From Escherichia phage vB_VIPECOMC06, in the sequence record PQ416618.1: DNA of 64,000 nucleotides. One strand, written 5' to 3'. Positions 24,692 to 60,276 of the stretch are shown here, piece after piece (the stretch's first letter is position 1; every line of letters starts with the position of its first letter). The translations under genes were made by a program, and so were the position numbers. Under the pieces are notes generated by a model, which saw nothing but the letters and a program-made list of their open reading frames with translations, searched no databases and was not told the origin of the DNA.

Positions 24692-24720
24692 ATTTACACG
24701 GGGTTTTAGTAGTGATACTA
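24692..24720 (+). promoter_or_regulatory. Early promoter/stem-loop cassette (aTTTAC -35, tagtgatactattaccctatc palindrome over -10)
   Basis: Sequence seen directly; same architecture recurs about 20 times in the window. Confidence 0.55.
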
Positions 24721-24757
24721 TTACCCTATCAAAACAAATGTGAAATTAGAGAATAAA

Positions 24758-25030
24758 ATGAAAACATTTAAAGAATTTATCAATGAAGCTGCTTTTAACG
24801 AAAAAGTAAAAATTAGCAAAGCTGTCAAGGCTTTGATTGATGACATCAATTACCTATATGATATTGATTTAACTGACTATGTAACAGTTGGTAACAAACG
24901 TAACTTTTTCGTGTTTGACATCTCTGAACTTGACCAGAATCAAATTAACAACATTGAGCGTTTTGCTAATGATAAGAGTCTTCGTCATGAGTCAGCGGGT
25001 TATAAAAAATACGCAATTTATTTAAAATGA
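24758..25030 (+). CDS. Internal-protein-like injected protein with capsid targeting sequence (IPI-position)
   Basis: Starts MKTFKEFINEA, the T4 internal-protein capsid-targeting-sequence signature (MKTYQEFIAE); located 3' of 57B where T4 has ipI. Confidence 0.7.
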   Translation: MKTFKEFINEAAFNEKVKISKAVKALIDDINYLYDIDLTDYVTVGNKRNFFVFDISELDQNQINNIERFANDKSLRHESAGYKKYAIYLK

Positions 25031-25060
25031 GTTTACTTTTAAATAGGGTTGTGGTACTAT
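25031..25060 (+). promoter_or_regulatory. Early promoter cassette (GTTTAC -35, 18-nt spacer, TACTAT -10)
   Basis: gtttacttttaaatagggttgtggtactat upstream of the 25091 ORF. Confidence 0.55.
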
Positions 25061-25090
25061 TATCTCATCAAAATTAATTAGGAAAATAAA

Positions 25091-25399
25091 ATGAAAACAT
25101 TTAAAGAATTTATCTGTGAAGCAGCTGCACCAAAGACATTCGTTATTCATACTCAAGCGGGTCTTGATGATGAGTATGCGGAAGCAATTCTGAAGTCACT
25201 TGCTAAGAACGGCGTTGAAGTAATTGCTTCGGACTTTAAGAAAGGGGCTCCCGAGATGTTTATTTCTATAACTAAAGGATCTAAAGCTAAGATTAAATCA
25301 TCATTCGGAGTTGCTCGTACCGATCAACTTGACAATCATAACTTTAAACAAACTGGCGTTAAACGGCAGAATACGATTGCATCACGCGGAATAAAATAG
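25091..25399 (+). CDS. Internal-protein-like injected protein with capsid targeting sequence
   Basis: Starts MKTFKEFICEAA; 102 aa; paralogous N-terminus to the 24758 ORF. Confidence 0.7.
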   Translation: MKTFKEFICEAAAPKTFVIHTQAGLDDEYAEAILKSLAKNGVEVIASDFKKGAPEMFISITKGSKAKIKSSFGVARTDQLDNHNFKQTGVKRQNTIASRGIK

Positions 25400-25410
25400 T
25401 TTATAAAACC

Positions 25411-25448
25411 GTTTACTTTTAGATAGGGTAGTGATACTATTACCCTAT
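25411..25448 (+). promoter_or_regulatory. Early promoter/stem-loop cassette
   Basis: gtttac -35, palindrome atagggtagtgatactattaccctat over -10, then caactactgaggagaataaaATG. Confidence 0.55.
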
Positions 25449-25468
25449 CAACTACTGAGGAGAATAAA

Positions 25469-25654
25469 ATGAAACGCGCTGAACTGATTCGTAATGTTGC
25501 TGTAGTAATTGCTTCAATGGCTTTTAGTTTTTCGATGTTTGTAGGATTCATTTGTGGACTACTGACAACAACAGAAAATTCTATCTCATTGGTAGTAGCA
25601 TTTCTAATCGGCTTAATCGCTATCGTTATGGATAAAATTGCAAAAGGTGAGTAA
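25469..25654 (+). CDS. Small hydrophobic (membrane) protein
   Basis: 61 aa, one long hydrophobic stretch; GAGGAG SD. Confidence 0.5.
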   Translation: MKRAELIRNVAVVIASMAFSFSMFVGFICGLLTTTENSISLVVAFLIGLIAIVMDKIAKGE

Positions 25655-25655
25655 A

Positions 25656-26018
25656 ATGAAATATCAAGTATATGCGGATTTTGAATCAAATCCTTCTAAA
25701 GACCCTGATTGTCGTTTGATACGCAGACCATTTGATTCAGCAGCTCAAGCCTGGGCTTGGATTAAAACTTGTACTCCTTCTTACACTTTCTTTGAAGTGG
25801 TAGATGATAACGGCATTTTGCATCCAGAACCTACAAAAACTATTAATTTCCTTCTGTTTGCTGGTTACGACTGTTATCCTCTTGGCGGTATTGACGATCT
25901 TGTTGCTACAGGAAAAACTGTTGAAGCTCTTCGTGAAATCTACAAAAATGCTGAAGAAAATTTTGACTGGTACCAGATTGTCAGTGCACATACTTTTGAA
26001 GTGGTGGAACACTCATGA
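25656..26018 (+). CDS. Hypothetical protein
   Basis: 120 aa from MKYQVYADF with AAAGGTGAG SD. Confidence 0.5.
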   Translation: MKYQVYADFESNPSKDPDCRLIRRPFDSAAQAWAWIKTCTPSYTFFEVVDDNGILHPEPTKTINFLLFAGYDCYPLGGIDDLVATGKTVEALREIYKNAEENFDWYQIVSAHTFEVVEHS

Positions 26019-26305
26019 TTCTTTATGCTAAAGTAAAATCTGTCGAGAACGGATATGAAAGCGATCAACGTGCAGCTAAAGCACTAGTCGATGACTATGG
26101 TATTTTGACTATTTTTGAAGTTGAAAAGGTTTACATCGACCGTTCATCTTCACAGGTTAAATTACTCTGTGAAGATGATAAATTTAACACAGTTAACTTT
26201 GATTTCTTTATTGAAACAGAAAAAGGCCCTCTTGAATATGATATTTTCAAGAATCCTTTGAAATTACGTTGCATTGAATATAATTACATTAATATGGTAC
26301 GGTGA
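26015..26305 (+). CDS. Hypothetical protein
   Basis: 96 aa; ATGA start/stop overlap with the upstream ORF. Confidence 0.5.
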   Translation: MILYAKVKSVENGYESDQRAAKALVDDYGILTIFEVEKVYIDRSSSQVKLLCEDDKFNTVNFDFFIETEKGPLEYDIFKNPLKLRCIEYNYINMVR

Positions 26306-28040: not shown

Positions 28041-28337
28041 AACCGGGTCGCTACCGGTAAGTCGTCGGACTGATGTTCCCTGCGTAAGGACTGGTCTTAA
28101 TAAATCTTTATGATTTGTTAATATCCCCTTACATCACAGCAGAAACGGCGCACAGAATTATCGATTCGAGGAAATATCTTTGCCGTAAGCCGAGTAGCGT
28201 TTTTGACGGAACGTTCGGATATGGTCGAGATATGGCCTTTTAAAAATATTGAGTAGCGTCAACTGCTTAATAACCGGGTTCGAATCCCGGCGTTTCGTAC
28301 AAACACTTGCCTTGCAGGTGGAACCCCGACAAGGTAT
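28041..28337 (+). ncRNA. ORF-free candidate structured/stable RNA region containing a tRNA-like T-arm
   Basis: About 300 bp with no ORF of 60 aa or more; ccgggTTCGAATcccgg at 28274-28290 is a canonical tRNA T-stem-loop but I could not pair a full acceptor stem; T4 encodes stable RNAs C and D next to its tRNAs. Confidence 0.3.
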
Positions 28338-28366
28338 AGCCCCTTCCGAAAGGTTGGGGCTTTTTG
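28338..28366 (+). terminator. Rho-independent terminator
   Basis: agcccc-ttccgaaaggtt-ggggct hairpin followed by TTTTT; a near-identical copy is at 43427-43455. Confidence 0.7.
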
Positions 28367-28498
28367 GTATCTAGGCCTTTCAGGGCCTCTCTAGGCATCA
28401 TTTAGTTTATACCCTTTATAATATATTATCCTACCTTTTAATTTCCTCTCCCTGCCCTAGAATTCCATAAAACTTTTTTTAAAAATTTTCACAAAACT

Positions 28499-28528
28499 GT
28501 TTACATCCCTGTTCTTCTATGGTACTAT
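28499..28528 (+). promoter_or_regulatory. Early promoter cassette (GTTTAC ... TACTAT)
   Basis: ctgtttacatccctgttcttctatggtactat then caactactg...ggagaataaaATG. Confidence 0.5.
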
Positions 28529-28570
28529 ATCAATATCAACTACTGATACAGAAACAACTTGGAGAATAAA

Positions 28571-28834
28571 ATGGATAATTACGGTGAACTGTTCAACTTC
28601 TTTATGAAATGCGTTCCAGAAGATTTCGGACGTACAGTGAATGATATTAAAGTTATTGGACCTGAACACCCGGTGTATGAAACCTATGCAGTAATGGGTA
28701 ATGAAGATGGACAGTGGTATACAATTAAAGTTGTGATTAATATGTTCTCGGCTGAAGGCTACGCCAAATCGTCTACCAAAGTTTACCATGATAACGATTT
28801 TGATGCGGAAGATTATTTCAATAATATGAAATAA
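28571..28834 (+). CDS. Hypothetical protein
   Basis: 87 aa from MDNYGEL with GGAG SD. Confidence 0.45.
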   Translation: MDNYGELFNFFMKCVPEDFGRTVNDIKVIGPEHPVYETYAVMGNEDGQWYTIKVVINMFSAEGYAKSSTKVYHDNDFDAEDYFNNMK

Positions 28835-28864
28835 TTGTTTACATGGGCTCATGATTAAGATATT

Positions 28865-29197
28865 ATGAGCCCTATTAATGAGAAGAATGTTATGAGTCTT
28901 TATACTGAACTGAATAAAAAATCTGAAGAATCTGCTGAAACTATTTTTAAAAACGTGCAAAAGCGTATTTTAGAAAAGATGTATAACACTGCAGCTAAAG
29001 GTGAAAAATCTTGCCGGTTTCCGATGAGGTGTTCTTCTGATTTATGCGCAAATACTATTGAATGGCTGGAAAGCGAAGGTCTTACGGTAGAGAAAAATCC
29101 AACGACTTCTATTGACAGTGAATCATATATTAGTATTTCTTGGGATAAACCACGTATTAATGAAGGACACTACAAGTTGTTAAGTTGGAAAAATTAA
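28865..29197 (+). CDS. Hypothetical protein
   Basis: 110 aa ORF. Confidence 0.4.
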   Translation: MSPINEKNVMSLYTELNKKSEESAETIFKNVQKRILEKMYNTAAKGEKSCRFPMRCSSDLCANTIEWLESEGLTVEKNPTTSIDSESYISISWDKPRINEGHYKLLSWKN

Positions 29198-29266
29198 AAA
29201 TAAATGATGTACAAACGCCAAGGACGGTGTTACTATAGACTTATCAACTACAGAGGAGTAAACAAA

Positions 29267-29431
29267 ATGACTACTTTAATTATTTGGTTCGATGAAAATG
29301 AAGAAACATACTGTGTGAATATTGGTGAAAGTCCAATGCCTGAATTTGAATCCTCAGATAAAAACTCTGTTGTATCTTGGGCTGAAGGTTATAAAGCAGC
29401 TAAAGGTGACGTTGAAATAATTTACATCTAA
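29267..29431 (+). CDS. Hypothetical small protein
   Basis: 54 aa from MTTLIIWF with GAGGAG SD; ORF-track extension upstream lacks an SD. Confidence 0.35.
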   Translation: MTTLIIWFDENEETYCVNIGESPMPEFESSDKNSVVSWAEGYKAAKGDVEIIYI

Positions 29432-29478
29432 GTAAGTTTATGTTATAGTAATCACATCAAATCAAGAGGAGAAACAAA

Positions 29479-29706
29479 ATGGCTACAGTTAGTATTGATG
29501 TCGTTGATTATGAATACACCGAAGAAGTTATTCGCAACCGTCACCCTGAAGTTCGTATCGATTCGGTCCAAGATTCCAAGTTCTGGACAACTGAGCTTAA
29601 TCTGAGTGGTCCTTATGAAGCTGTTAAGAAGTTCATGGTTGAAGAATACTGTGAAGGCATGCACCCAGAAGACGCCGAGTTTTATGTCAATTTGATTAAA
29701 AAATAA
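29479..29706 (+). CDS. Hypothetical acidic protein
   Basis: 75 aa; AGAGGAG SD. Confidence 0.45.
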   Translation: MATVSIDVVDYEYTEEVIRNRHPEVRIDSVQDSKFWTTELNLSGPYEAVKKFMVEEYCEGMHPEDAEFYVNLIKK

Positions 29707-29741
29707 TTTACAAACTCTTGAGAGCAGAGTATAATGCTCTC
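29706..29741 (+). promoter_or_regulatory. Early promoter/stem-loop cassette; near-identical copy at 59314-59348
   Basis: tttacaaactcttgagagcagagTATAATgctctc; palindrome gagagca/tgctctc flanks the -10. Confidence 0.55.
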
Positions 29742-29776
29742 ATTGGATATTAAACCACCAATTGAAAGGTAATAAT

Positions 29777-30370
29777 ATGAACACACTGAAGAAACTTGTT
29801 GAATTCATCCGCACTAAACTGGGTACTGCTATGGCTAAAAATCTGACTGTCGAAGAACAGTATAACGCAGCTGCAGATAAGTTGATTACCCAAATCAAAG
29901 AACTAAAAACGGCTTCTGTTAAATCTATTAATGAAGAAAAACGTATTCGTGAACTTGTTATTGAAAAGAATAAGCAAGCCGCTTCTAAGGAACGTGAAAT
30001 TCGTAAGCTCTTGGCTGAAGGACAAGATGTTACCATGCATGCTAAGCTTGGTCTTCTGTATCGTCGAACTGCCGAACAACTTAATACAAAAGCCGACGGG
30101 TACGCTGCTATGCGAATTGAAATTGCTCGTAAGGTGGTTGAACTTGATGATGCTCGTCAGAACCTGGCAATCAAACTCGAATACATTCGTGAAACTCGAG
30201 CAGCCAATGCCCTTGGTATCTCTACGGCTGATGATGTAATTGAAATCGCTGCACTGACTAAGGTTGATATCGAAGACACTCTGACTCGTGTTGAAACGTT
30301 CAATGGCACTCCAACTGGTGTCGAAACAACTTCTGCTGATGTACAAGAATATATTAACTCTTTGAAATAA
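29777..30370 (+). CDS. Coiled-coil protein, possibly PspA/IM30-like
   Basis: 197 aa, long heptad-like helical sequence (…[28 protein letters not shown]…[20 protein letters not shown]); resemblance to PspA architecture is by eye only. Confidence 0.4.
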
Positions 30371-32513: not shown

Positions 32514-32543
32514 GTTTACAACAAGATAGGGCTATGTTATAGT
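32514..32543 (+). promoter_or_regulatory. Early promoter/stem-loop cassette
   Basis: gtttacaacaagatagggctatgttatagtagtcctatc (palindrome atagg.../...cctat over -10). Confidence 0.5.
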
Positions 32544-32571
32544 AGTCCTATCAAATTAAATGGAGTCCACA

Positions 32572-32811
32572 ATGATTTATTACGAAAGTATCGGAACCAA
32601 AGTGGTTGGTAAAACCATTACTCGTGAAAAGTTTGCAAAGATATTCGATATGCGTTATAAAAAATCTGAACACAAAGGCATCAGATTCGAAGATGCACAC
32701 TGTACAATTTGCCCTTATAATGAAGACATAAATGGTACAATCGTTCCATTGGTAGAGGCTTCACATGACGACCTCTGGGATGAATATAATATCGCATGTC
32801 GCGAAATTTAA
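32572..32811 (+). CDS. Hypothetical Cys/His-containing small protein
   Basis: 79 aa from MIYYES with GGAG SD. Confidence 0.4.
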   Translation: MIYYESIGTKVVGKTITREKFAKIFDMRYKKSEHKGIRFEDAHCTICPYNEDINGTIVPLVEASHDDLWDEYNIACREI

Positions 32812-33808: not shown

Positions 33809-33838
33809 GTTTACAACATGATAGGACTATGTTATAGT
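33809..33838 (+). promoter_or_regulatory. Early promoter/stem-loop cassette
   Basis: gtttacaacatgataggactatgttatagtagtcctat. Confidence 0.5.
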
Positions 33839-33866
33839 AGTCCTATTAAAACATGAGGAGAATATT

Positions 33867-34172
33867 ATGAAATTAGGCGAAACCAACCGAATTGGTCTTT
33901 TAACAATATTTGCATCACCTTTTTACGCAGCCCTTTCTGTTGCAGTATTACAAAAGGCTTACGATATGGATGGTGTTCCTGGTTTTGTATTCTTATCGCC
34001 GTTTTTGCTATTCGTTGGAGCATTGTTATTATATGCCACGACTAGTTTCGACCATAACGTCTGGGTCAATTATAAATGTAAATTGTCTGAAGAAGAACAC
34101 GCGGAAGCTCGTAAAAAAGCTATTGAATCTACTAATCTAGAAAATTTCATTAAAGAATGTCGAGGAAAATAA
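33867..34172 (+). CDS. Small membrane protein (FIKECR-tail family)
   Basis: 101 aa; two hydrophobic segments; C-terminus ...LENFIKECRGK. Confidence 0.5.
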   Translation: MKLGETNRIGLLTIFASPFYAALSVAVLQKAYDMDGVPGFVFLSPFLLFVGALLLYATTSFDHNVWVNYKCKLSEEEHAEARKKAIESTNLENFIKECRGK

Positions 34173-35898: not shown

Positions 35899-35930
35899 TG
35901 TTTACTTCCTCCAAGGACTTTGATACTATA
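35899..35930 (+). promoter_or_regulatory. Early promoter cassette
   Basis: gtttacttcctccaaggactttgatactat then caactacttggaggaaattATG. Confidence 0.5.
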
Positions 35931-35956
35931 CATTCATCAACTACTTGGAGGAAATT

Positions 35957-36370
35957 ATGACTCGTATCAATTTAACACTTGTTTCTGAACTGACCGACCA
36001 ACATCTTATGGCGGAGTATCGTGAATTACCACGCGTATTTGGTGCAGTCCGTAAACATGTTCAAAACGGTAAACGTGTAAAGGATTTTAAAATCTCTCCA
36101 ACATTTATCTTAGGCACAGGACACGTAACATTCTTTTACGACAAACTCGAATTTTTACGTTTACGTCAAATCGAGCTAATCGCTGAATGCTTGAAACGTG
36201 GTTTCAAAATCAAGGACACGACTGTCCAGGATATTTCCGACATCCCTGCAGAATTTCGTAATAATTATGTCCCGTCCGAAGCGTCCATTGCGATAAGTCA
36301 AGCACGCTTAGACGAAAAAATTGCCCAACGTCCTACTTGGTACAAATACTATGGTAAATCAATTTACTAA
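35957..36370 (+). CDS. denV: Endonuclease V (pyrimidine dimer DNA glycosylase)
   Basis: 137 aa; [34 protein letters not shown]...[22 protein letters not shown] matches T4 DenV almost exactly. Confidence 0.95.
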
Positions 36371-36401: not shown

Positions 36402-36431
36402 GTTTACGCTTAAGTATTAATATGGTATAAT
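36402..36431 (+). promoter_or_regulatory. Early promoter (GTTTAC -35, TATAAT -10)
   Basis: gtttacgcttaagtattaatatggTATAAT upstream of the 36462 ORF. Confidence 0.5.
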
Positions 36432-36461
36432 TACTCTATCAAAACAAACAAGGAAACAAAA

Positions 36462-36776
36462 ATGAAAACGTATAAAGAATTTATTGCAGAATCCGCCAAC
36501 CAACGCGTTGAAGGTGGTTATATTTGGATTGAACAAGTTGAGCCACCGAGCCGCACTTCTACAGGTAAATGGAAAATTACTGTTGATGGTCCTGGTGGTA
36601 AACGTAGGACTCTTAAAGAAATTAATGGGTACTATGAAGAAGCTCTTTCGGATGCAGGAACTTACATGATGCAAATCATGATTAAAAACCCTGAAAACCG
36701 TTTTGCAGCTAAAGTCTTCCGTCGCATCGGTAATAAACTTTATGACGCATACTCTAAAAACTTCCCTAAAGAATAA
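36462..36776 (+). CDS. Internal protein (IPII-like) with capsid targeting sequence
   Basis: Starts MKTYKEFIAESA; 104 aa; near denV/e as are T4 ipII/ipIII. Confidence 0.75.
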   Translation: MKTYKEFIAESANQRVEGGYIWIEQVEPPSRTSTGKWKITVDGPGGKRRTLKEINGYYEEALSDAGTYMMQIMIKNPENRFAAKVFRRIGNKLYDAYSKNFPKE

Positions 36777-46942: not shown

Positions 46943-47923
46943 ATGTTCAACGTTCAAATCAAAAAAGGTATCTATCGTAATAACGAAATCTCTGGTTCTT
47001 ATGTTGCCACAAAGACATGGTTCCCGGCAAAGCTTAATCCTGAATGTTCCCACTTAGGTGATGGTAAAATTTTCGTTATGATTGATGGTTCTGAACGTGG
47101 AGTATGGGTCTTCAAATCAGACATCGTAATGGAAGGAGTTGAGACATCACCAGTTGCAGTTGTTGAAAGCACTGAAGATATGAAAACTCGTATCAACAAA
47201 CGCTTTAAAGTAATGAACATGATGACGAATGGCATTATCGATGGCAAAATTCGTTCACTCATTATTTCAGGTGCAGCTGGTATTGGTAAGACGTATTCTC
47301 TGGATAAAGCACTTAATAACGCTAATGATAATGGTTTCATCAAATACAAAAGCATTAATGGTAAAATCTCTGGTATTGGCCTTTACGAACAACTTTGGCT
47401 CAACCGTGATGCAGACAGCGTTCTCTTAATCGACGACGTTGACGTATTCTCAGATATGGACATCTTGAACCTTCTTAAAGCAGCATTAGATACTGGAGAT
47501 AAACGCAAAGTTTGCTGGAGCACTGCGTCATCTTATCTCGATGATAAGGGTATTGATAAAGAATTTGAGTTTGAAGGTACTATCGTTTTCATTACAAACG
47601 TTGATATCGATAAAGAGTTAGAACGCGGTTCGAAACTTGCTCCACACCTTCAAGCTTTAGTATCTCGTTCAGTGTATCTCGACCTTGGAGTACACTCTAA
47701 TGAAGAGATTATGGTTCGAGTTGAAGATGTAATATTATCTACTGACATGATGCAGAAACGTGGTCTGACAGATGCAGAAACGTATAAAGCATTGTCCTGG
47801 ATGAAGGCTAACGTATCTCGTCTTCGCAATGTATCATTACGTACGGCTCTTTACGTAGCAGATTTTATTTCAACTGATAAAGATGGTTGGGAGGAAATCT
47901 CTGAAGTTACTTTACTGAAATAA
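46943..47923 (+). CDS. P-loop (AAA-like) ATPase
   Basis: 326 aa from MFNVQIKKG; Walker A ISGAAGIGKTYS; Walker B VLLIDDVD. Confidence 0.6.
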   Translation: MFNVQIKKGIYRNNEISGSYVATKTWFPAKLNPECSHLGDGKIFVMIDGSERGVWVFKSDIVMEGVETSPVAVVESTEDMKTRINKRFKVMNMMTNGIIDGKIRSLIISGAAGIGKTYSLDKALNNANDNGFIKYKSINGKISGIGLYEQLWLNRDADSVLLIDDVDVFSDMDILNLLKAALDTGDKRKVCWSTASSYLDDKGIDKEFEFEGTIVFITNVDIDKELERGSKLAPHLQALVSRSVYLDLGVHSNEEIMVRVEDVILSTDMMQKRGLTDAETYKALSWMKANVSRLRNVSLRTALYVADFISTDKDGWEEISEVTLLK

Positions 47924-48351: not shown

Positions 48352-48380
48352 GTTTACAAGGTCTATGGTTATGTTATTAT
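48352..48380 (+). promoter_or_regulatory. Early promoter/stem-loop cassette
   Basis: gtttacaaggtctatggttatgttattatagacctatc then caactactggaggtaaaacATG. Confidence 0.5.
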
Positions 48381-48407
48381 AGACCTATCAACTACTGGAG
48401 GTAAAAC

Positions 48408-48935
48408 ATGAACGCTAAAGATATTTTCAACCTGGTAAATTATAACGACGGTAAATTTAAATCTGAAGCACAAAGCAAGTTCTTTAATGACGTTGCTTAT
48501 GGTAACGAGATTACCGTGGACGGAGGTCAGATTTTCAAATCTCGCTGGAATTGGATTGTTATCATCGATTCAGTTGGAATTGTGGAAGTCTACAAAAACA
48601 CTAACAAAAAACGTACATTATTCTGGTCTCGTGAAACTAACGAGCAGTACAAAAAGGATAAAGCATCTCGTTTATCTAAAGTAACCCAGGAAGATATCGA
48701 GTTTATCAAGAAAGATATCGAGATGTACGAAAATTTAATCGCTGAAGACCAGGCAGTACTCGATAAGTTTGATGAAATTAAAGCTTCTCGTGAAATCCCT
48801 GACTTCATGAAAGAAACAGTAAACGAACGATACGCTCTCACTTCAGAACGTATTGCAAACTATACAAAACAGAAAGCAGAACGTATTAGTACTCTTCGGA
48901 AATTTGAAGAACGTTTAAAGACGGTTCACGCATAA
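48408..48935 (+). CDS. Hypothetical protein
   Basis: 175 aa ORF. Confidence 0.45.
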   Translation: MNAKDIFNLVNYNDGKFKSEAQSKFFNDVAYGNEITVDGGQIFKSRWNWIVIIDSVGIVEVYKNTNKKRTLFWSRETNEQYKKDKASRLSKVTQEDIEFIKKDIEMYENLIAEDQAVLDKFDEIKASREIPDFMKETVNERYALTSERIANYTKQKAERISTLRKFEERLKTVHA

Positions 48936-48997: not shown

Positions 48998-49993
48998 ATG
49001 AGCATTACATCTGATGCGGTAAAACATGAAATTAACGGTTTATGTGCTTCACAGATTAAAGTGTGGTTTAAAGACCATAATGATCGCAGAGCACTTAATT
49101 ATGAGCAAATTGCTATCCAAGTTCATCAATTACTGACTAGTAAATTTGATTTTCATATGCCGTCTGAAATCTATACTAATCTACCGCGAGCGCTTATTAA
49201 AGCGTGTAAAGGTTATGGAAAATCAATGGCTGATGGAATCTTCAGCGCGCTGAATAAACTTAACGTTCTGTCGATGATTAACTCTAACAACATCCTGCGT
49301 AATCTAGGACGTACTGATTTGTTCGGTCGTGAACAGTGTAAAATGCCTTTGAAATGGATTGTTGCTCATCTTAACGAGAACCAAACACGTTTTATGGCTG
49401 TATCAGCACGCTTACAAATGGGCCTAGATCGTCAGATGAACTTTAAAACTCATCCACGTTATTCAGGTTCAACAGACTTTTATAAATGTGAGCTTCAAAA
49501 GGTTGCAGGTAAAACTGTCTTAGTAGTTCGTGTAACGTTTGAAGGACGACGTCAAGGATATTTTGACCTAATCGGCTCTGGTCTTAAACATTGTGGATTT
49601 ATTGACGAAGTTGATATCAAGCGAGACAGCATTGGATACCGTATTGGATATGTTTGTACTCTTAAAGAAGAGATTTCAGGACCAGTACCAGGACTAAAAG
49701 ACGTTAGATATAAAGACGAGCTCGTTGAAGAAATAAAAGAAGTTGAATATGATATCAACCAAGAAGATGCTCTTAAAGACCTTATTGATGAACTAAACCA
49801 AGACGTTATTCCGGTTCAGAAATTTGAATCAAAACATGCTGAGCAAATCAAATACTTTGAAGCTTTGATTAACGAACTTAATGTAACTATTCAACAGACT
49901 GACGATGAAATCTCGCGATTAGCAGGCTTAAACGGTAAAAATAAAACGGAACGAGCTAATCTTATTCAGGTAGTAAAACTTCTTAAGGAATGA
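48998..49993 (+). CDS. Hypothetical 331-aa protein with C-terminal coiled coil
   Basis: Acidic helical C-terminal third; own promoter cassette. Confidence 0.5.
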   Translation: MSITSDAVKHEINGLCASQIKVWFKDHNDRRALNYEQIAIQVHQLLTSKFDFHMPSEIYTNLPRALIKACKGYGKSMADGIFSALNKLNVLSMINSNNILRNLGRTDLFGREQCKMPLKWIVAHLNENQTRFMAVSARLQMGLDRQMNFKTHPRYSGSTDFYKCELQKVAGKTVLVVRVTFEGRRQGYFDLIGSGLKHCGFIDEVDIKRDSIGYRIGYVCTLKEEISGPVPGLKDVRYKDELVEEIKEVEYDINQEDALKDLIDELNQDVIPVQKFESKHAEQIKYFEALINELNVTIQQTDDEISRLAGLNGKNKTERANLIQVVKLLKE

Positions 49994-50022
49994 TGTACAA
50001 CCAAGGATGGTTGGAGTATAAT
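49993..50022 (+). promoter_or_regulatory. Early promoter/stem-loop cassette (ccaaggatggttgg palindrome, TATAAT -10)
   Basis: atgtacaaccaaggatggttggagTATAAT; near-identical copy at 50986-51015. Confidence 0.5.
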
Positions 50023-50048
50023 AAATTTTTCAACATGAGGAATATAAA

Positions 50049-50981
50049 ATGGCTTTTATTACACGTAGAGAACTTATCAAAGAATTTACCTCGAACGCAT
50101 ATACTCCAGGACCTAATCCTATCCGTATGCCTGTAAAGACTCCTGAAGAGATTGAGGAAATCTGTTCATATTATGGGATTAATTCTCGTAAGTTTACTCA
50201 ATTTGAATGCGTTACTAACACACCCGTTAAAGAGTTCATTAAAAATGGTGAGTTCAGCCGTTTATTAGCCAAACAGAAACTTCGTAATTTTTGTATCGGC
50301 GGTGAAGGACAATATTTCGCTAAGCAGTTCAGGAATAACCTTAACAATCTGATGGCCATTGCTTCTCGTATTCGTCCTCAAGCAATTAACATGAAACATT
50401 TGAAATATACTTACGATAAGTTAGAAATCATGGTTATCAGTGAGAACGAGTTCACTCTTAAGTATAAACCTAAGAATGATAACGTTGCTCGTGTATTCCA
50501 CCAAGCGTTGGAAGTTTTAGGTGATAATATCCACCAGATTAAAGCAATTTATTCTCGTGAGCTTAATATTATCGACCCTATCAAGAATAAGGGCCATATC
50601 GCTATCCAGGCTCGTGTATCTATTGGTAAAAAGGTTCCTGCGCCATGGTGGCACAAAGACTCTGAATATTATAAAAATCTTAAAAAGGAAAATGCAACGT
50701 TTGAAGCGTCAATTATTGTCGCCCCGACTATCGGTAAGATTAACGCAGCTTCAGCACAACCTGTTATGTTTAACGGCACGTCTTCGACTAAACTGGAAAT
50801 CTCTAATGGTCTTCTTCCTGCCGAAGATTACTATTATAATCAAATCAAAGCCACTGTGGACCAACTGTCTGTTGAACTTGACAAAGCACAAGCTAAGCTT
50901 CGTGATGCTCAACAAGTAGTTACCAAGCTCCAGTTGCAGTACTCTAAACTTTTTAACGCAATGAATGCATTAAAATCATAA
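50049..50981 (+). CDS. Hypothetical 310-aa protein with C-terminal coiled coil
   Basis: C-terminus LDKAQAKLRDAQQVVTKLQLQYSKLFNAMNALKS; own promoter cassette. Confidence 0.5.
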   Translation: MAFITRRELIKEFTSNAYTPGPNPIRMPVKTPEEIEEICSYYGINSRKFTQFECVTNTPVKEFIKNGEFSRLLAKQKLRNFCIGGEGQYFAKQFRNNLNNLMAIASRIRPQAINMKHLKYTYDKLEIMVISENEFTLKYKPKNDNVARVFHQALEVLGDNIHQIKAIYSRELNIIDPIKNKGHIAIQARVSIGKKVPAPWWHKDSEYYKNLKKENATFEASIIVAPTIGKINAASAQPVMFNGTSSTKLEISNGLLPAEDYYYNQIKATVDQLSVELDKAQAKLRDAQQVVTKLQLQYSKLFNAMNALKS

Positions 50982-50985: not shown

Positions 50986-51015
50986 GTTTACAACCAAGGA
51001 TGGTTGGAGTATAAT
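50986..51015 (+). promoter_or_regulatory. Early promoter/stem-loop cassette (copy of the 49993 element)
   Basis: gtttacaaccaaggatggttggagTATAAT. Confidence 0.55.
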
Positions 51016-51043
51016 CTTTCTATCTTAACGAGAGGAAAATATT

Positions 51044-51994
51044 ATGACACGTTCACATTACATTGATTATTTTGCAGGTCTTATCGCTAACGTTCATGCC
51101 CAACGTGCTTCTGGTTCATTAGGATTTGATGTTCCACACCGAGTTGTAGTAAGTGGTATTCTTCGCGATTTTGGTACATACACAGGCCAAGAAAATCATA
51201 TCTGTAAAGATACTCAGAATGCGTATTCTCATTCATTAGGGACACTGCTTCAATGGTTCAAACGTTCTCGTTTATTATCTTCTACTGTAGCTCGCGATAA
51301 CATTAAAAACTTTATGAAGCCGAGCTTTATTAAATCTGTGACATCTAAAACCGATTTGGTTGAATTTACTATTATTAACGATGTTAAAAAGACTCATTTA
51401 GCTGATTGGTTATCTACCATTCCTGAAACTAAATTTGCTGATAAATTTGCTTGTGAATTCAATAACCAAGTGAATATGCTTTTTAAACATTCTCGTAAAT
51501 TATTCACAGGTGGCGATGATCGTACAAATAAAGTTCATGTTAAAGATTGGGTTACTGCAGTATTCAAACCGACCGGTAATGGTAACGCATCATTGTCAAT
51601 TGATATCCAGGTTCCGTATTACTACTCACGTAATCTCGGCACCATGAAAGCTGAAGAAATTAAGAAGCACAACAAAACCATTCGTTCGCTGTCTTATAAA
51701 CTTCGCATGATGTTAAGAATCATGGACGTGGTAGAAATGTATGATGAAACCGAAGATAACGGTTCAATGTTATTCAGTTCTCGTATTCAAATTAAGCTGA
51801 AGAACCCTAACGAGTATAAGCCTAAGCCTATTAAAGAGACTAAAGCAGAAAAAGCTGATAATTTAAGAGAAGAACGCGAATATCTCAAATCTCGTCTGAA
51901 AGAAGTCGAAGCCCAGATTGCAGAACAAACTAAATCATTAAAAGCTCTGAATGCAAAAGCTGATGGTTTACGAAATGCTATTGAGGTTTTATAA
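51044..51994 (+). CDS. Hypothetical 316-aa protein with C-terminal coiled coil
   Basis: C-terminus EEREYLKSRLKEVEAQIAEQTKSLKALNAKADGLRNAIEVL; own promoter cassette. Confidence 0.5.
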   Translation: MTRSHYIDYFAGLIANVHAQRASGSLGFDVPHRVVVSGILRDFGTYTGQENHICKDTQNAYSHSLGTLLQWFKRSRLLSSTVARDNIKNFMKPSFIKSVTSKTDLVEFTIINDVKKTHLADWLSTIPETKFADKFACEFNNQVNMLFKHSRKLFTGGDDRTNKVHVKDWVTAVFKPTGNGNASLSIDIQVPYYYSRNLGTMKAEEIKKHNKTIRSLSYKLRMMLRIMDVVEMYDETEDNGSMLFSSRIQIKLKNPNEYKPKPIKETKAEKADNLREEREYLKSRLKEVEAQIAEQTKSLKALNAKADGLRNAIEVL

Positions 51995-58064: not shown

Positions 58065-58094
58065 GTTTACATCCTCAATAGATGTGTTAAGATT
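58065..58094 (+). promoter_or_regulatory. Early promoter cassette
   Basis: gtttacatcctcaatagatgtgTTAAGAT ... tagaggaaaataaaATG. Confidence 0.45.
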
Positions 58095-58121
58095 AAACCA
58101 TCTACTATAGAGGAAAATAAA

Positions 58122-58370
58122 ATGATTAGTTTAGATTCAAAGAAAGTTGTTCTAACTCTTAATGTAAACAACGAACGTCTGATATTCATTACCATTTCCG
58201 ATTTGAACGTTGAAATTGCTAATGGCGTCCGTACTTATCAAACGTCTAAAACACAATGGGACTATATCCCAATGTTGACGCTTACTCAGCGTTTAGAATC
58301 AATCGGTCTTAAAGACCTTTCAGTAAGTGAAGTGAATTTTATCAAACGCATTGTATCAATCAACCTCTGA
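58122..58370 (+). CDS. Hypothetical protein
   Basis: 82 aa from MISLDSKK. Confidence 0.4.
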   Translation: MISLDSKKVVLTLNVNNERLIFITISDLNVEIANGVRTYQTSKTQWDYIPMLTLTQRLESIGLKDLSVSEVNFIKRIVSINL

Positions 58371-58377
58371 GGTACTT

Positions 58378-58671
58378 ATGGGTAAAACGTATCGTCGTAA
58401 AGATTTGAAAGTTCGTGATTACGACTATTTTGGTAAACGTAAAGCTCCTGACGGTGTTAGCCACAAAGACATGGTTGAAAACATTTTCCGCTCAGATAAA
58501 TGGAAACGTATGAAAGGTGTTGATTCTGAAGTCAAGAACGAAATGAATCGACAACTTCGCAAAGAAGTTCGTAAGTTGAAAAAAGATGTTTACAGTAAAG
58601 AAGATTATGATTATAATACTTCTCATACTGAAGCCAAACGTAAAGCTAACGAATGTTATCGTTACAGTTGA
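58378..58671 (+). CDS. Hypothetical basic protein
   Basis: 97 aa from MGKTYRRKD with GAGG SD. Confidence 0.4.
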   Translation: MGKTYRRKDLKVRDYDYFGKRKAPDGVSHKDMVENIFRSDKWKRMKGVDSEVKNEMNRQLRKEVRKLKKDVYSKEDYDYNTSHTEAKRKANECYRYS

Positions 58672-58809
58672 GGAAATTATGAATATCAAACGAATGCTTT
58701 TTAAGCAGGGATTATATACTTTAAATGCTAATCCAAAGGGTGATACAACTAAATGGTCTGTAAATGACTGGATTAAGTTCATCGACGAAAACGGGGCGTG
58801 GAACACAAA

Positions 58810-59010
58810 ATGAATCCTGAAAATATTGTGTCATGGCAACTTCGTGAAGAACGTGCCGAATTCTTTGCCAATATGAAACTCAACGGTGTTGAGGACGAAG
58901 ACTTTTTACGTTGGTTCTGGATTTACAAATACAAAGAATGCCAGCACGCTGTACTACTGACTTGTGCAGTTATGTATGAAGGCTGGAAAGGCGCTAAAAA
59001 GTTCGGTTAA
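58810..59010 (+). CDS. Hypothetical protein
   Basis: 66 aa from MNPENIVSW. Confidence 0.35.
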   Translation: MNPENIVSWQLREERAEFFANMKLNGVEDEDFLRWFWIYKYKECQHAVLLTCAVMYEGWKGAKKFG

Positions 59011-59073
59011 TAATATACAACGATAGGAAGACATGTTATTATCTTCCTATCGTCTTAAAATGAGGAAAATATC

Positions 59074-59313
59074 ATGGAACAAGAATTAGACATTATTACA
59101 TCGAAAAAACGTCTTGAAGTCGTAGTGAATGGCTCAACTATTAAGTTTGTATACGACACTTTAACTGATGCTATTACTGTTAGTTGTGGTGGAAAGGCTT
59201 TTAGTCTAGATTCTACTGAAAACAAATACCCGTTCTATAAAGGTATCTTTGATATGGGTGTTGATATCAGTGTTCGTCAAGCAAACTATTTACATTATCT
59301 TATCACGGAATAA
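59074..59313 (+). CDS. Hypothetical protein
   Basis: 79 aa; GAGGAAAA SD. Confidence 0.4.
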   Translation: MEQELDIITSKKRLEVVVNGSTIKFVYDTLTDAITVSCGGKAFSLDSTENKYPFYKGIFDMGVDISVRQANYLHYLITE

Positions 59314-59348
59314 TGCACAAACTCTTGAGAGCAGAGTATAATGCTCTC
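59314..59348 (+). promoter_or_regulatory. Early promoter/stem-loop cassette (copy of the 29706 element)
   Basis: gcacaaactcttgagagcagagTATAATgctctctc. Confidence 0.55.
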
Positions 59349-59381
59349 TCATTGGATAATAAAATAACCGAGGAAAATAAT

Positions 59382-59714
59382 ATGTCTACTAAAATCAAAA
59401 ACGTAGTTAATTCTTTCGCTTTCGATAAAGTTGTTGCTCTTCTGGAATCCGGCAATATTGTTACTCCTCAAGTCCTTGACGCGTGGGAATTCCGTCTTTA
59501 TGAAATCATGCAAAAACACGACCAGAAAATTGGACGTAATTCTATTCGCGAAATTCTAGTACAATATATTCTTTCTGAATTTGACGTTGCTGCATTTGGT
59601 GTTGAATCTAAAGCTTATCAGAAACATGAAATCTCTGAAAAAACTATCCGTCGTATGAAAAATCAACGTAAGAAAAAATTCGTTGACCTGAAAATTGTTA
59701 AGGCGGTAAAATGA
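59382..59714 (+). CDS. Hypothetical protein
   Basis: 110 aa from MSTKIKNVV with GAGGAAAA SD. Confidence 0.45.
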   Translation: MSTKIKNVVNSFAFDKVVALLESGNIVTPQVLDAWEFRLYEIMQKHDQKIGRNSIREILVQYILSEFDVAAFGVESKAYQKHEISEKTIRRMKNQRKKKFVDLKIVKAVK

Positions 59715-59938
59715 GCGTATTAACAGAAACTTTGATTAATGACCTGCGTCTAGCTGGTTACGAAGTTGGTACAAATAGCCTAGGTCTTTCTCAGATTGAA
59801 GGGCTTGGATTTATCCTAGAATATGAATTCAAACAATGGTGGCTATATGCTACGGCTGACGATGCGTTGAATATCGATTTCGTTGACCAATTTGATTCGT
59901 TGGATGATGCTCTTGAAGCAGCAAAGGAACTAGAATGA
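59711..59938 (+). CDS. Hypothetical acidic protein
   Basis: 75 aa; ATGA overlap. Confidence 0.4.
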   Translation: MSVLTETLINDLRLAGYEVGTNSLGLSQIEGLGFILEYEFKQWWLYATADDALNIDFVDQFDSLDDALEAAKELE

Positions 59939-60204
59939 AATTAACTCGAATCAGTATAACTGAAGAAAAGCTGGGCGAATTTTATGTTGACGAATACATG
60001 AAAGTCACGTATTTTCCATTCGTTAAAGGTGTTGGTTTTTGGGAAACTCATGTATCTCAATTAAACGAAGGCGACTATAACGAAACTCATGAGAACTTTT
60101 TAGATTTTCTTTATAATGCCGGTCTTACTGAGCTTTATATCGATATCCATGAGTTCAAACGTTTAATGGAAAAAGTGTTTCAGGCTTATTGTTTGCTCCG
60201 ATAG
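59935..60204 (+). CDS. Hypothetical protein
   Basis: 89 aa; ATGA overlap. Confidence 0.4.
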   Translation: MKLTRISITEEKLGEFYVDEYMKVTYFPFVKGVGFWETHVSQLNEGDYNETHENFLDFLYNAGLTELYIDIHEFKRLMEKVFQAYCLLR

Positions 60205-60276
60205 TATCTCGTGCTTTAAGATAGGTCTCTAAATATTATGATATAATAGACCTATGAATTGAGCTAAGAGGTACTT

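Follow-up and report, generated by a model that had tools for sequence, protein, structure and literature searches.

Early promoter cassettes of an RB69-like coliphage carry copy-specific hairpins, some of which are predicted to mask the downstream Shine-Dalgarno sequence

Early promoter cassettes ahead of accessory genes

The window analyzed here is a stretch of 64,000 nucleotides from Escherichia phage vB_VIPECOMC06 (PQ416618.1), an RB69-like (Mosigvirus) coliphage. Between 24.6 and 59.4 kb, about 21 cassettes of 55-90 bp each are found on the + strand ahead of non-essential early genes, arranged in the order GTTTAC, a spacer of 17-18 nt, TGnTAnnnT, a short leader, a GGAG-type ribosome binding site (RBS) and ATG. 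As promoters they are not new, being the usual early promoters of a T4-type phage related to RB69. The initial annotation had described a promoter/stem-loop/RBS cassette recurring before accessory ORFs, and motif counts bear this out: GTTTAC-N15-19-TAnnnT occurs 22 times in the window versus 5.06 +/- 2.59 expected, a number reached in 0/100 shuffles, and 19 of these matches are + strand sites within the interval 25.0-58.6 kb (a looser motif scan was also run). Eighteen of the 20 coordinates given at the time are genuine cassettes, and three further copies (28837, 29206 and 29420) had been overlooked. Position 48938 was rejected, as its GCTTTA-N13-TATAAT arrangement has a spacing that suits middle promoters with a MotA box, not early sigma70 promoters; the site is absent from both RB69 promoter lists, early and middle, of Nolan et al. 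Position 53351 was rejected as well: the true GTTTAC is located at 53371 within a coding sequence and is accompanied by neither a hairpin nor a conserved leader. The leader, initially given as one sequence, falls into two families, TCAACTACT and TCAAAACAAA (repeat family D8). Copy-specific hairpins are present in about half of the cassettes and fall into two classes: class A hairpins enclose the -10, and class B pairs the spacer with the downstream Shine-Dalgarno (SD) sequence. The copies and an associated terminator are listed below, with z denoting the fold z.

24692..24760, + strand: cassette with class A hairpin GGGGT..AGTA / TACT..ACCCT, before an internal-protein-like gene; z = -2.46
25031..25093, + strand: chimeric cassette without hairpin, 5' arm of the 25411 type and 3' arm TATCTCATC; z = +1.2
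25411..25471, + strand: cassette with class A hairpin GATAGGGTA/TACCCTATC; z = -3.95
28337..28374, + strand: canonical GC-rich terminator hairpin with T-run, second copy at 43426-43463; repeat family D15
28499..28573, + strand: cassette of an e.8-like gene, weak structure, exact RegB consensus at 28561; RB69 Pe:73274
28837..28894, + strand: cassette with class A hairpin GGGCTCAT/ATGAGCCC; z = -4.86
29206..29269, + strand: cassette with ATGTAC -35, no hairpin; RB69 Pe:72567, repeat families D5 and D13
29420..29481, + strand: cassette with ATTTAC -35, no hairpin; RB69 Pe:72354
29706..29779, + strand: cassette with class A hairpin GAGAGC/GCTCTC, near-twin of 59313; z = -3.93
32514..32574, + strand: cassette with class A hairpin ATAGGGCTA/TAGTCCTAT, one G.U pair; z = -3.84, RB69 Pe:69254
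33809..33869, + strand: cassette with class A hairpin ATAGGACTA/TAGTCCTAT; z = -4.92
35900..35959, + strand (initially placed at 35899): denV cassette, class B, spacer TTCCTCCAAG pairing with SD CTTGGAGGAA; z = -5.89
36402..36464, + strand: cassette of an internal-protein-like gene, no hairpin; RB69 Pe:64193 and Pm:64182
39836..39895, + strand: regB cassette, class B, spacer TTCTCCTCTAG pairing with SD CTAGAGGAGAA; z = -3.67
43466..43524, + strand: cassette with weak class B pairing TTTTCCTC/GAGGAGAA, one G.U; repeat family D15, folding
44183..44243, + strand: cassette with class A hairpin GGTAGGACTA/TAATCCTACC, exact RegB consensus at 44231; z = -4.25
46876..46945, + strand: cassette with GTGTAC -35, no hairpin, exact RegB consensus at 46933; RB69 Pe:55296 and Pe:55018
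48352..48410, + strand: nrdC.8 cassette, class A hairpin AGGTCTAT/ATAGACCT; folding and T4 comparison
49993..50051, + strand: cassette with ATGTAC -35, 27-nt core shared with 50986; repeat D17, RB69 Pe:52042
50986..51046, + strand: cassette with weak structure, 27-nt core shared with 49993; RB69 Pe:51019
58065..58124, + strand: cassette with nested hairpins, TAGATG/CATCTA within TCCTC/GAGGA; z = -3.57
59313..59384, + strand (initially placed at 59314): cassette copy with degenerate -35 TGCACA, class A hairpin GAGAGC/GCTCTC; z = -3.06

The genes behind class B promoters include the nuclease RegB (39836; Pfam REGB_T4) and the DNA-repair glycosylase DenV (35900; Pfam Pyr_excise). Several copies differ from their counterparts in other phages. 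The RB69 homologue of 24692, Pe:77187, has another stem (GGATGAT/ATCATCC), and in Pe:72936, the counterpart of 28837, one pair is a U.G wobble. In the L110 and T4 homologues of the chimeric 25031 cassette the arms match (GATGAGGTA/TA(T/C)CTCATC), and its leader sits behind three different promoters in different phages. The pairing at 43466, directly 5' of which the second terminator copy is located, is perfect in relatives (TTCTCCTC). The nrdC.8 promoter at 48352 is class A in the window phage and class B in its T4 orthologue, where GenBank U76612 annotates -35 and -10 signals. For 36402, RB69 lists both an early (Pe:64193) and a middle (Pm:64182) promoter.

Evidence for copy-specific RNA hairpins

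The inverted repeat assigned to the cassette in general proved to be copy-specific and beyond chance where present, but only about half of the copies have one; the described form, with the -10 embedded in one arm, corresponds to class A, and the spacer:SD pairing of class B had been missed. For the window cassettes, native combinations of 5' and 3' halves gave -8.2 kcal/mol versus -4.95 kcal/mol for chimeric combinations (z = -5.8, 0/5000 permutations), and the per-copy fold z ranges from -1.8 to -5.9 in 12 copies and is approximately 0 in the others. A larger test set comprised 249 de-replicated cassettes from the window, five Mosigvirus relatives, T4 and IMG/VR. Here, the native MFE was -9.7 compared to -7.03 +/- 0.12 in chimeras, and helices of at least 9 bp were enriched both between the spacer and the -10/+6 zone (21 vs 1.0 +/- 1.0 in chimeras) and between the spacer and the SD zone (12 vs 0.6 +/- 0.8). 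For class B, the excess is found in long helices only, as a loose pair count shows none over chimeras. Part of the class B complementarity results from pyrimidine-rich spacers lying opposite purine-rich SDs.

Many unrelated arm sequences occupy one and the same position across cassettes, and the fixed-register covariation score is 0.224 versus 0.180 +/- 0.012 in shuffled sets (0/500 shuffles), with slid registers giving 0.06-0.14. The covariance analysis that the initial annotation had proposed finds covariation, and the repeats do not reduce to a promoter consensus without palindrome conservation. Covariation is present in both classes, including between the window phage and T4: at the denV promoter the T4 orthologue pairs TCTCCTGTAG/CTACAGGAGA, compensatory to the window sequences, and at the regB promoter T4 pairs TTTTCCTCTT/AAGAGGAGAA, again compensatory, with an RB69 helix of 12 bp. 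Internal non-Watson-Crick positions are G.U in 15 cases and A.C in 2 for class A, and G.U in 7 and A.C in 0 for class B, which are small counts of 17 and 7 informative positions, respectively; that nearly all are G.U points to a helix acting as sense-strand RNA. A G.T-tolerant hairpin in single-stranded + strand DNA would yield an equal G.U bias. Since half of the copies lack a hairpin and are presumably functional promoters, the hairpin is not needed for promoter activity.

Ribosome binding sites and the RegB consensus

A GGAG Shine-Dalgarno sequence precedes 12/23 cassette genes versus 5/72 other genes, and the four exact matches to GGAGRAYARAA all coincide with cassette RBSs, including GGAGAATAAAA at 25459 in the 25411 copy. 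In T4 early mRNAs, GG*AGRAYARAA is the RegB cleavage consensus, and secondary structure protects against RegB (PMC3014915). The cassette RBS block matches this RegB/S1 consensus and is a predicted cleavage site.

Recombination at cassettes

Individual recombination events are observed among relatives, including crossovers inside cassettes, swapped promoters, the chimeric promoter at 25031 and insertions flanked by cassette copies. In ECO111 5-P, a 663-bp insertion lies exactly at the 33809 cassette, four relatives show a breakpoint at 36377-36387 (36402 cassette), and at the 46876 locus RB69 has two cassette copies (Pe:55296 and Pe:55018) around an extra ORF. Four relatives lack the 58065 cassette ahead of the same gene, the promoter preceding some genes differs between the window phage and RB69, and both terminator copies coincide with indel breakpoints. 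Repeat comparison confirms the two near-identical pairs noted at the outset, with 95% identity over 40 nt between 29702-29741 and 59309-59348 (repeat D11) and 100% identity over 27 nt between 49996-50022 and 50989-51015 (repeat D17). In both pairs the likeness ends at the cassette, and the downstream genes are unrelated and not paralogues. Breakpoints were found at 11/23 cassette-bearing junctions versus 25/71 cassette-free junctions (odds ratio 1.7, p = 0.33). The earlier suggestion that the cassettes probably mediate modular gene shuffling is consequently borne out by single events and not by a significant excess of breakpoints at junctions, so that gene shuffling through cassettes is only anecdotally supported.

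Proposed mechanism and alternative explanations

It is hypothesized, and considered probable, that the hairpins of these early promoters can fold only on read-through RNA, class B masking the downstream SD. Each cassette is a T4-type early promoter read by host sigma70 RNA polymerase: an A-rich UP region precedes the GTTTAC -35, the spacer measures 17-18 nt and the -10 is of the extended type (TGnTAnnnT). A leader of about 25 nt follows, together with a GGAG-type RBS that may double as a RegB/S1 cleavage site, and each cassette would drive one non-essential early gene in the hyperplastic region. In about half of the copies, the spacer and the discriminator/leader, stretches that the polymerase reads without base specificity, have been turned into the arms of a hairpin. 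Based on sigma70 promoter geometry, the cassette's own transcript would start about 7 nt past the -10, within the hairpin; its mRNA would lack the 5' arm, and therefore only RNA from an upstream promoter could fold. On such RNA, the class B fold is expected to bury both the SD and the RegB site, so that regB, denV and the other genes downstream of class B promoters would each be translated only from their own early transcript. The class A hairpin lies 10-15 nt upstream of the RBS, just past the preceding gene, where it would most likely serve as an attenuator or 3'-end barrier insulating neighbouring cistrons; this role is the weakest part of the account. In addition, the common -35, TGnTAnnnT and +1 region may provide short homology patches at which recombination swaps promoters and genes.

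A possible, though less convincing, explanation is that the hairpins are terminators or attenuators of upstream transcription and the cassette a composite terminator-promoter, as proposed, and in part tested, for the PeSLs of phi1 and RB49. When inserted between lacZ and a strong promoter, one phi1 PeSL stem-loop cut expression approximately as rrnB T1 does (PMC2839356), and class A hairpins directly follow the preceding gene. Furthermore, the cassettes at 28499, 43466, 46876 and 58065 have a separate canonical terminator upstream and no strong class A hairpin. The two elements look like alternatives to each other, four promoters being too few for significance. However, no U-tract follows any class A stem and none of these hairpins was recovered in a terminator scan of the window, which makes classical intrinsic termination by class A unlikely. 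In contrast to the polyG/polyC stems of RB49 and phi1 (PMC2839356), the stems here are AT-rich and modestly stable (-12 to -18 kcal/mol), and class B stems, which end at the SD with a spacing of 25-35 nt, suit RBS masking instead.

It is unlikely that the inverted repeats act in DNA, through cruciform or hairpin cutting (e.g. by endonuclease VII) or replication stalling, as hot spots that move genes and with RNA structure being incidental. Such a role would fit the in-cassette crossovers, the cassette-flanked insertions, the promoter swapping and the cassette-limited duplicates 30 kb apart, and PeSL-to-PeSL mini-circles have been physically shown in phi1 and RB49 (PMC2839356). A duplex cruciform, however, should suffer equally from G.T and A.C mismatches, whereas in class A G.U outnumbers A.C on the sense strand (15 vs 2). 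Cassettes without hairpin recombine too (36402 and 46876), crossover points fall in shared -10 and +1 sequences, so that shared homology is enough, breakpoints are not significantly enriched at cassette junctions, and the published mini-circle junctions lie between the -10 and the SD/ATG, off the stem (PMC2839356).

Even less probable is that these are plain T4-type early promoters whose palindrome is a by-product of a partly self-complementary consensus, with TAGG of the spacer matching CCTA of the discriminator, and no selected structure. The lack of structure in half of the copies agrees with this, as do the 3' arms TAGTCCTATCAA, TAGACCTATCAA and TACCCTATCAA, which recur as families without a matching 5' arm (for example in RB69 Pe:72354 and Pe:55018). 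Nevertheless, the chimera and covariation tests largely refute it: chimeras between copies keep the consensus and lose the structure, covariation exceeds shuffles and slid registers, and unrelated stems share the same register (GAGAGC/GCTCTC, GGGCTCAT/ATGAGCCC, GGATGAT/ATCATCC and GTTGACAAGATT/AATCTTGTCAAC). Finally, it is hardly credible that the palindromes serve as operators at which a dimeric protein, of phage or host origin, switches early promoters off after 2-3 minutes. The T4 shut-off mechanism is indeed stated to be unknown (PMC2988021, PMC3014915), and operators are classically found as inverted repeats centred on the -10. However, the arms differ fully between copies yet stay complementary, which marks a nucleic-acid helix rather than a protein site, half of the early promoters are without any repeat and G.U wobbles are tolerated.

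Comparison with known systems

For RB69, 58 early promoters were predicted in 2006 using an HMM (Nolan et al. 2006, PMC1524935). Nearly every copy in the window maps onto one of them at an orthologous position, spanning Pe:48639 to Pe:73274 plus the positions of Pe:76459, Pe:76812 and Pe:77187, and shares the features noted there, namely the -10, the GTTTAC -35 and C-richness from -3 to -1. In that paper, however, the promoter is a sequence profile only, and the term 'stem-loop' occurs 0 times.

The cassette kind is already known, its architecture being that of published PeSLs (Arbiol et al. 2010, PMC2839356; Comeau et al. 2014, PMC4122927), and the likeness drawn by the initial annotation is correct: both combine a sigma70-like early promoter and an AT-rich upstream region with a stem-loop, commonly between the -35 and -10 or over the -10, and both end in an SD followed by the start codon. 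PeSLs likewise form dense clusters ahead of small non-essential ORFs in hyperplastic regions, with crossovers between copies. Their preferential link with indels is not reproduced at the level of window junctions. The published PeSLs come from RB49/phi1, T4/PST and KVP40/nt-1 and do not include the RB69 group; those of T4/PST are reported to have their stem-loops immediately 5' of the promoter (PMC4122927), whereas many stems of the window cassettes and the homologous T4 region enclose the -10. Moreover, the stem was read as a terminator or attenuator, and translation or RBS masking is never mentioned (PMC2839356, PMC4122927); neither the class B spacer:SD pairing nor the G.U sense-strand signature is described in these papers.

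As for the RegB/S1 sites of T4 early mRNAs, GGAGAATAAAA and near variants at cassette RBSs equal the consensus, and regB of the window phage carries one, as reported for T4-related phages. In contrast, about half of the cassette genes have non-GGAG SDs, and the sites in the window are predicted from sequence.

The closest parallel to class B is offered by T4 e, soc, 49 and I-TevI (PMC3014915), in which the 5' strand of an SD-masking helix also lies upstream of an internal promoter start, transcripts initiated upstream are silent and those from the internal promoter are open, as predicted for the window, and the targets are often lytic or nucleolytic proteins. There, the embedded promoter is late and the mask blocks early expression, whereas in class B an early sigma70 promoter is embedded and contributes its own spacer as the anti-SD; if true, the class B mask would prevent expression from RNA that reads through from upstream or at later times.

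Genomic context of the cassettes

The source of the window is an RB69-like coliphage of the genus Mosigvirus (Tevenvirinae). Shigella phage phi25-307 (96.6%) and RB69 (94.7%) both match the segment at 24-34 kb, over ~86% of the segment's length. By reference to the annotated RB69 counterpart, late baseplate and neck genes occupy the minus strand as far as ~21 kb. The plus strand then carries genes 4, 2, 3, 1 and 57 in this order, and after them an early block of non-essential genes (internal proteins, tRNA, e.x, e, denV, vs, regB, tk, rI, mobD, nrdC.x and pin) that constitutes the hyperplastic region classically described for T4-type genomes. Three features of this block were recorded in addition to the cassettes:

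27018-27686: gene for a 222-aa GIY-YIG (seg-like) homing endonuclease directly past the tRNA at 26905-26976; missing at the same position in RB69, TH12, phiEC1 and EP02SG, with a ~657 bp unaligned segment at this position in ECO111 5-P
24758, 25091, 36462, 36803 and 37420: starts of a small-gene family with a common N-terminal leader, MKT(F/Y)KEFI, of the kind typically seen in internal head proteins of T4; promoter and leader are retained among relatives, whose gene bodies vary
36803-37381: 192-aa internal-protein-like ORF with no Pfam match, missing from RB69, ECO111 5-P and EP02SG; its insertion site is a junction without a cassette

Promoter identity and census of copies

On sequence criteria, the cassettes, designated by their window coordinates, are predicted T4-type early promoters in the form of promoter-early stem-loops (PeSLs), already predicted in RB69. 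They combine the features by which T4-type early promoters are recognized, namely a GTTTAC-like -35 element, a spacer of 17-18 nt to TAnnnT (often with TGn) and an A-rich upstream region. All are located on the plus strand within the ipI-e-denV-regB-tk-nrdC early block, with an ATG and its Shine-Dalgarno (SD) sequence 45-70 nt downstream. A pattern scan of the window for GTTTAC-N15-19-TAnnnT returned 22 matches against 5.06 ± 2.59 expected, 19 of them on the plus strand between 25.0 and 58.6 kb and 14 with TG preceding the -10. Among the promoter patterns scanned, only this T4-specific one was enriched; a generic sigma70 scan (TTGACA/TATAAT) yielded no enrichment (80 vs 69.8 and 77 vs 68.5). 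For RB69, 58 early promoters were predicted with an HMM seeded with the T4 early consensus (Nolan et al., 2006; PMC1524935). The 22 of these that fall into the homologous RB69 segment were extracted and compared with the window by BLAST, and nearly all cassettes map to one of them. The exception is formed by three cassettes of the internal-protein locus, for which the position is kept and the sequence replaced. Additionally, -35 and -10 signals are annotated in the T4 GenBank record U76612 at the orthologue of the 48352 copy.

Copies were recovered with a one-mismatch scan that required a downstream SD and ATG. This procedure recovered the sites of the initial annotation, 18 of whose 20 coordinates are genuine, and added three overlooked copies (28837, 29206 and 29420). 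The two coordinates that did not hold are 48938 and 53351. The site at 48938-48962, upstream of an nrdC.6-like gene, reads GCTTTA-N13-TATAAT and thereby has the layout of a middle promoter dependent on MotA; it is present in neither the early nor the middle RB69 promoter list of Nolan et al. For 53351, the real GTTTAC lies at 53371, inside coding sequence and without hairpin and leader. Two further sites were set aside: 51966 (GTTTAC-N18-TATAAT) is a chance match inside nrdC.3 whose -10 overlaps the nrdC.2 ATG, and 31626 is more likely a middle promoter (early score 4.9 vs middle score 16.2 in Nolan's lists). The sites 36402-36431 and 31626-31655 both read GTTTACGCTT.. and thus carry a MotA-box-like GCTT right behind the -35; for RB69, the orthologous sites appear in the early as well as the middle promoter list (Pe:64193/Pm:64182 and Pe:70143/Pm:70132). 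The near-identical pairs noticed at the outset were borne out (29706/59314, 95% over 40 nt; 49993/50986, 100% over 27 nt). In neither pair does the similarity extend beyond the cassette, and the proteins encoded downstream are unrelated, which rules out gene duplication as the origin of these promoter pairs.

Hairpins in the window copies

Each copy in the window was folded from the spacer through the start codon, and 12 of ~21 copies reached z <= -1.8, the remainder being without a hairpin. Two classes are distinguished: in class A, a hairpin encloses the -10, and in class B, the spacer is paired with the downstream SD.

Folding of the cassette copies in the window (plus strand)
24692, 25411, 28837, 29706, 32514, 33809, 44183, 48352, 59313: class A, nine copies; z -1.8 to -4.9
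35900, 39836, 58065: class B, longer-range fold, three copies; z -3.6 to -5.9
25031, 28499, 36402, 43466, 46876, 49993, 50986: without significant structure

The inverted repeat ascribed to the cassette in the initial annotation is real, yet only about half of the copies have one. As a control, chimeras were assembled from the 5' half of one copy and the 3' half of another, so that the consensus was retained and copy identity was broken. Native window copies fold at -8.2 kcal/mol compared to -4.95 for the chimeras (z = -5.8, 0 of 5000 permutations). A search against Rfam returned no known RNA family at any cassette, its sole match being a tRNA.

Covariation and the folding molecule

The sample was widened to IMG/VR (among the matches listed), five relatives within Mosigvirus and the corresponding 50 kb of T4. 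The pattern used for IMG/VR fixed the -35, TGnTAYWRT and a downstream TCAA and left both arm regions free, and de-replication at 85% identity resulted in 249 cassettes (the IMG/VR part among the matches listed). In this sample, with the same restriction to listed IMG/VR matches, the native minimum free energy (MFE) is -9.7 versus -7.03 ± 0.12 for chimeras. The same stem position is occupied by unrelated sequences: GGACTA/TAGTCC, GGGTA/TACCC, GGCTAT/ATAGCC, GGTCTAT/ATAGACC, GATGAGGTA/TATCTCATC, GAGAGC/GCTCTC, GGGCTCAT/ATGAGCCC and GTTGACAAGATT/AATCTTGTCAAC. Covariation was scored for 150 promoters with 18-nt spacers (IMG/VR again among the matches listed), without hairpin selection and in one fixed register; the score of 0.224 exceeds that of shuffles (0.180 ± 0.012, 0 of 500 reaching the observed value), and slid registers gave 0.06-0.14. 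For class B, an MFE pair-count classifier showed no excess (95 vs 92 for chimeras), since any pyrimidine-rich spacer pairs with any SD, and it was replaced by the longest contiguous helix that the spacer can form with either target zone. Among the matches listed, Watson-Crick helices of at least 9 bp were counted 21 times in the class A zone against 1.0 ± 1.0 in chimeras, and 12 times in the class B zone against 0.6 ± 0.8. Covariation across many unrelated stems provides quantitative evidence, at the level of sequence comparison, for selection on the embedded hairpins.

Single non-Watson-Crick positions flanked by continuing helix were counted as an indicator of the molecule that folds. Read on the sense strand, G.U exceeds A.C by 15 to 2 in class A and by 7 to 0 in class B (IMG/VR among the matches listed). 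This bias is not expected of a duplex cruciform or of antisense RNA, and sense-strand RNA is the simplest reading. Single-stranded plus-strand DNA is a conceivable second candidate for the folding molecule. Readings of the palindromes as protein operators or as DNA cruciforms were both rejected on the covariation together with the G.U bias in this sample (IMG/VR among the matches listed). For the sense-strand RNA, sigma70 geometry would place the transcription start ~7 nt past the -10, that is, at the last bases of the 3' arm in class A and between the arms in class B. With a start within the hairpin, the promoter's own transcript would be unable to form either structure, and only RNA reading through from upstream could do so.

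As a separate observation, the homologous T4 segment (OZ035787.1 106288-156259, reverse complement) contains 7 class A hairpins (for instance at segment positions 9565, 13144, 17704 and 25506) and 4 class B hairpins (for instance at 18090, 20698 and 29552) among 18 candidate early promoters.

The spacer as a putative anti-Shine-Dalgarno

Class B is absent from the initial description. Here, the bases right after GTTTAC are complementary to the SD of the driven gene, so that the promoter's own spacer provides the 5' strand and the loop contains the -10, with the start site placed by sigma70 geometry. The pairing is TTCTCCTCTAG...CTAGAGGAGAA at 39836 (11 bp) and TTCCTCCAAG...CTTGGAGGAA at 35900 (10 bp), and it is shorter at 43466 and 58065; Pfam identifies the proteins downstream of the first two as RegB and the pyrimidine-dimer glycosylase DenV, respectively. 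The arms reach past the SD core, and the gene-specific bases always match (CTAG, CAAG, CATG, GTTAG, ATTAG, TTTGT, ATTT). The T4 orthologues keep the pairing with other sequences, TCTCCTGTAG/CTACAGGAGA at denV and TTTTCCTCTT/AAGAGGAGAA at regB. At these two genes, T4 and RB69-type phages have the putative anti-SD subclass in common, the arms differing by compensatory changes. The literature searched contained nothing specific on T4 start-site mapping.

Elsewhere in the window, the gap separating the ORFs 58798-59010 and 59074-59313 is taken up by an inverted repeat at 59019-59054, whose stem (GACGATAGGAAGA...TCTTCCTATCGT) measures 15 bp; on the plus strand the repeat includes AGGAAGA...ATG, which might be another masked start.

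The ribosome binding site and RegB

The conserved GGAGGAnAATAAAATG block pointed out initially corresponds to the RegB/S1 cleavage consensus GG*AGRAYARAA (PMC3014915). All four exact matches to this consensus in the window are located at cassette ribosome binding sites (RBSs) and none on the minus strand, and a GGAG-type SD is found at 12 of 23 cassette genes compared to 5 of 72 other plus-strand genes. According to the same review (PMC3014915), structured RNA is shielded from RegB, and the SD of regB is itself a target of RegB cleavage.

Recombination at cassettes

Collinear BLAST chains against RB69, ECO111 5-P, TH12, phiEC1 and EP02SG resolved 25 separate indels or replacements across the early region, of which ~12 have an edge in a cassette or at most 26 nt from one. 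Internal-protein genes are replaced between the cassettes 24692, 25031 and 25411, insertions in relatives are found exactly at 33809, 36402 and 43466, and at the position of 46876 RB69 carries an ORF flanked by two cassette copies. Promoters are swapped as well: anchored on the downstream gene, the leader and gene at 25091 are preceded by one of three promoters, depending on the phage. Copy 25031, which has no hairpin, is chimeric: a 5' arm that matches its 3' arm TATCTCATC exists only in other phages. Candidate substrates for mini-circle formation are present in the form of 27-nt identical cores at 49996 and 50989, 993 bp apart. A canonical terminator, consisting of a GC-rich hairpin (TAGCCCCTTCC..GGTTGGGGCTTTTTGG) and a T-run, is repeated at 28337-28374 and 43426-43463 with 87% identity, and both copies coincide with indel breakpoints versus relatives, so that exchange points are marked by promoters and terminators alike.

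The probable role in modular gene shuffling put forward initially is upheld in part: individual exchanges within cassettes are evident, yet breakpoints occur at 11 of 23 cassette junctions and 25 of 71 other junctions (odds ratio 1.7, p = 0.33), and the comparison is unchanged for junctions with a spacer of at least 20 nt. Cassettes sit at gene junctions, and breakpoints fall on junctions in general; the popular notion of preferential gene shuffling by cassettes does not stand out from the gene-junction background in these data.

Proposed mechanism and its implications

The account with the strongest support takes the cassette as an early promoter joined to a RegB-sensitive translation start, which in about half of the copies would be embedded in an RNA structure present only on read-through transcripts. 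Translation of a class B gene would then be confined to transcripts of its own promoter, which shuts down after 2-3 minutes, and RNA reading through from upstream or at later times would not be translated. In the window, denV is located directly downstream of lysozyme and internal-protein genes, which are late-expressed in T4. Class A stems closely follow the gene in front of them and lie 10-15 nt ahead of the RBS; they are without a U-tract, and none was detected by a terminator scan of the window. A phi1 stem of this general type lowered downstream reporter expression (PMC2839356). Class A can be assigned a role with less certainty, the main options being an attenuator or a 3'-end barrier after cleavage by RegB or RNase E. 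A related purpose of both classes is suggested by the promoter of nrdC.8, which belongs to class A in this phage but to class B in T4.

A tentative generalization, possible rather than probable, is that in T4-type phages including T4 about half of the early promoters lie inside RNA hairpins to which the spacer of the promoter itself contributes the 5' arm, leaving mRNA from the own promoter translatable and read-through mRNA masked or insulated, a genome-wide switch set by where the transcript starts. If so, each small early gene, especially those for the nucleases RegB and DenV, would be solely under its own short-lived promoter, masked sites would be protected from RegB, classes A and B would be interchangeable solutions, and hairpin-less promoters would largely be recent recombinants of promoters with different stems. 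Functional read-through-only structures would help to explain both how dozens of tandem strong promoters in T4-type genomes avoid cumulative downstream over-expression and how toxic early nuclease expression is limited to the first minutes of infection, and would offer phage engineers a compact, portable insulator design.

Comparison with known systems

The likeness to PeSLs proposed initially is well founded: a stem-loop lies in or next to the early promoter in 12 of ~21 copies, with SD and start codon 3' of it, in the hyperplastic region before ORFans. Published PeSLs share this composite architecture, which comprises an AT-rich upstream region, a sigma70-like promoter, a stem-loop often overlapping the -10, and an SD with ATG (Arbiol et al., 2010, PMC2839356; Comeau et al., 2014, PMC4122927). 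These papers cover RB49/phi1, T4/PST and KVP40/nt-1 and not the RB69 group to which the window phage belongs. The hairpin-less window copies resemble the 'degraded' PeSLs described for other T4-type phages (PMC4122927). The published T4/PST PeSLs have stem-loops upstream of the promoter (PMC4122927), whereas the seven class A hairpins of the T4 segment enclose the -10. The PeSL papers also link cassettes to indels; here, ~12 of 25 events against the five relatives touch cassettes, with p = 0.33 at the junction level. Translation or sequestration is not mentioned by Arbiol et al. (2010; PMC2839356), and the literature searched contains no description of RBS sequestration by early promoters, although older T4 papers may contain one.

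Class B would follow the logic of the hairpins that mask T4 e, soc, 49 and I-TevI, with which it has in common a helix between the SD/AUG and an upstream strand and, by sigma70 geometry, a promoter start between the strands. The embedded promoter is late (gp55) in those genes and of the early GTTTAC/TAnnnT type in class B, which therefore would work like this family without being a strict member; the class B arrangement at denV is proposed to be the mirror image of that at T4 gene e. The promoters and their PeSL form are ordinary and already known, to which the present comparison adds the apparent RNA-level selection on the hairpins and a predicted anti-SD subclass common with T4.
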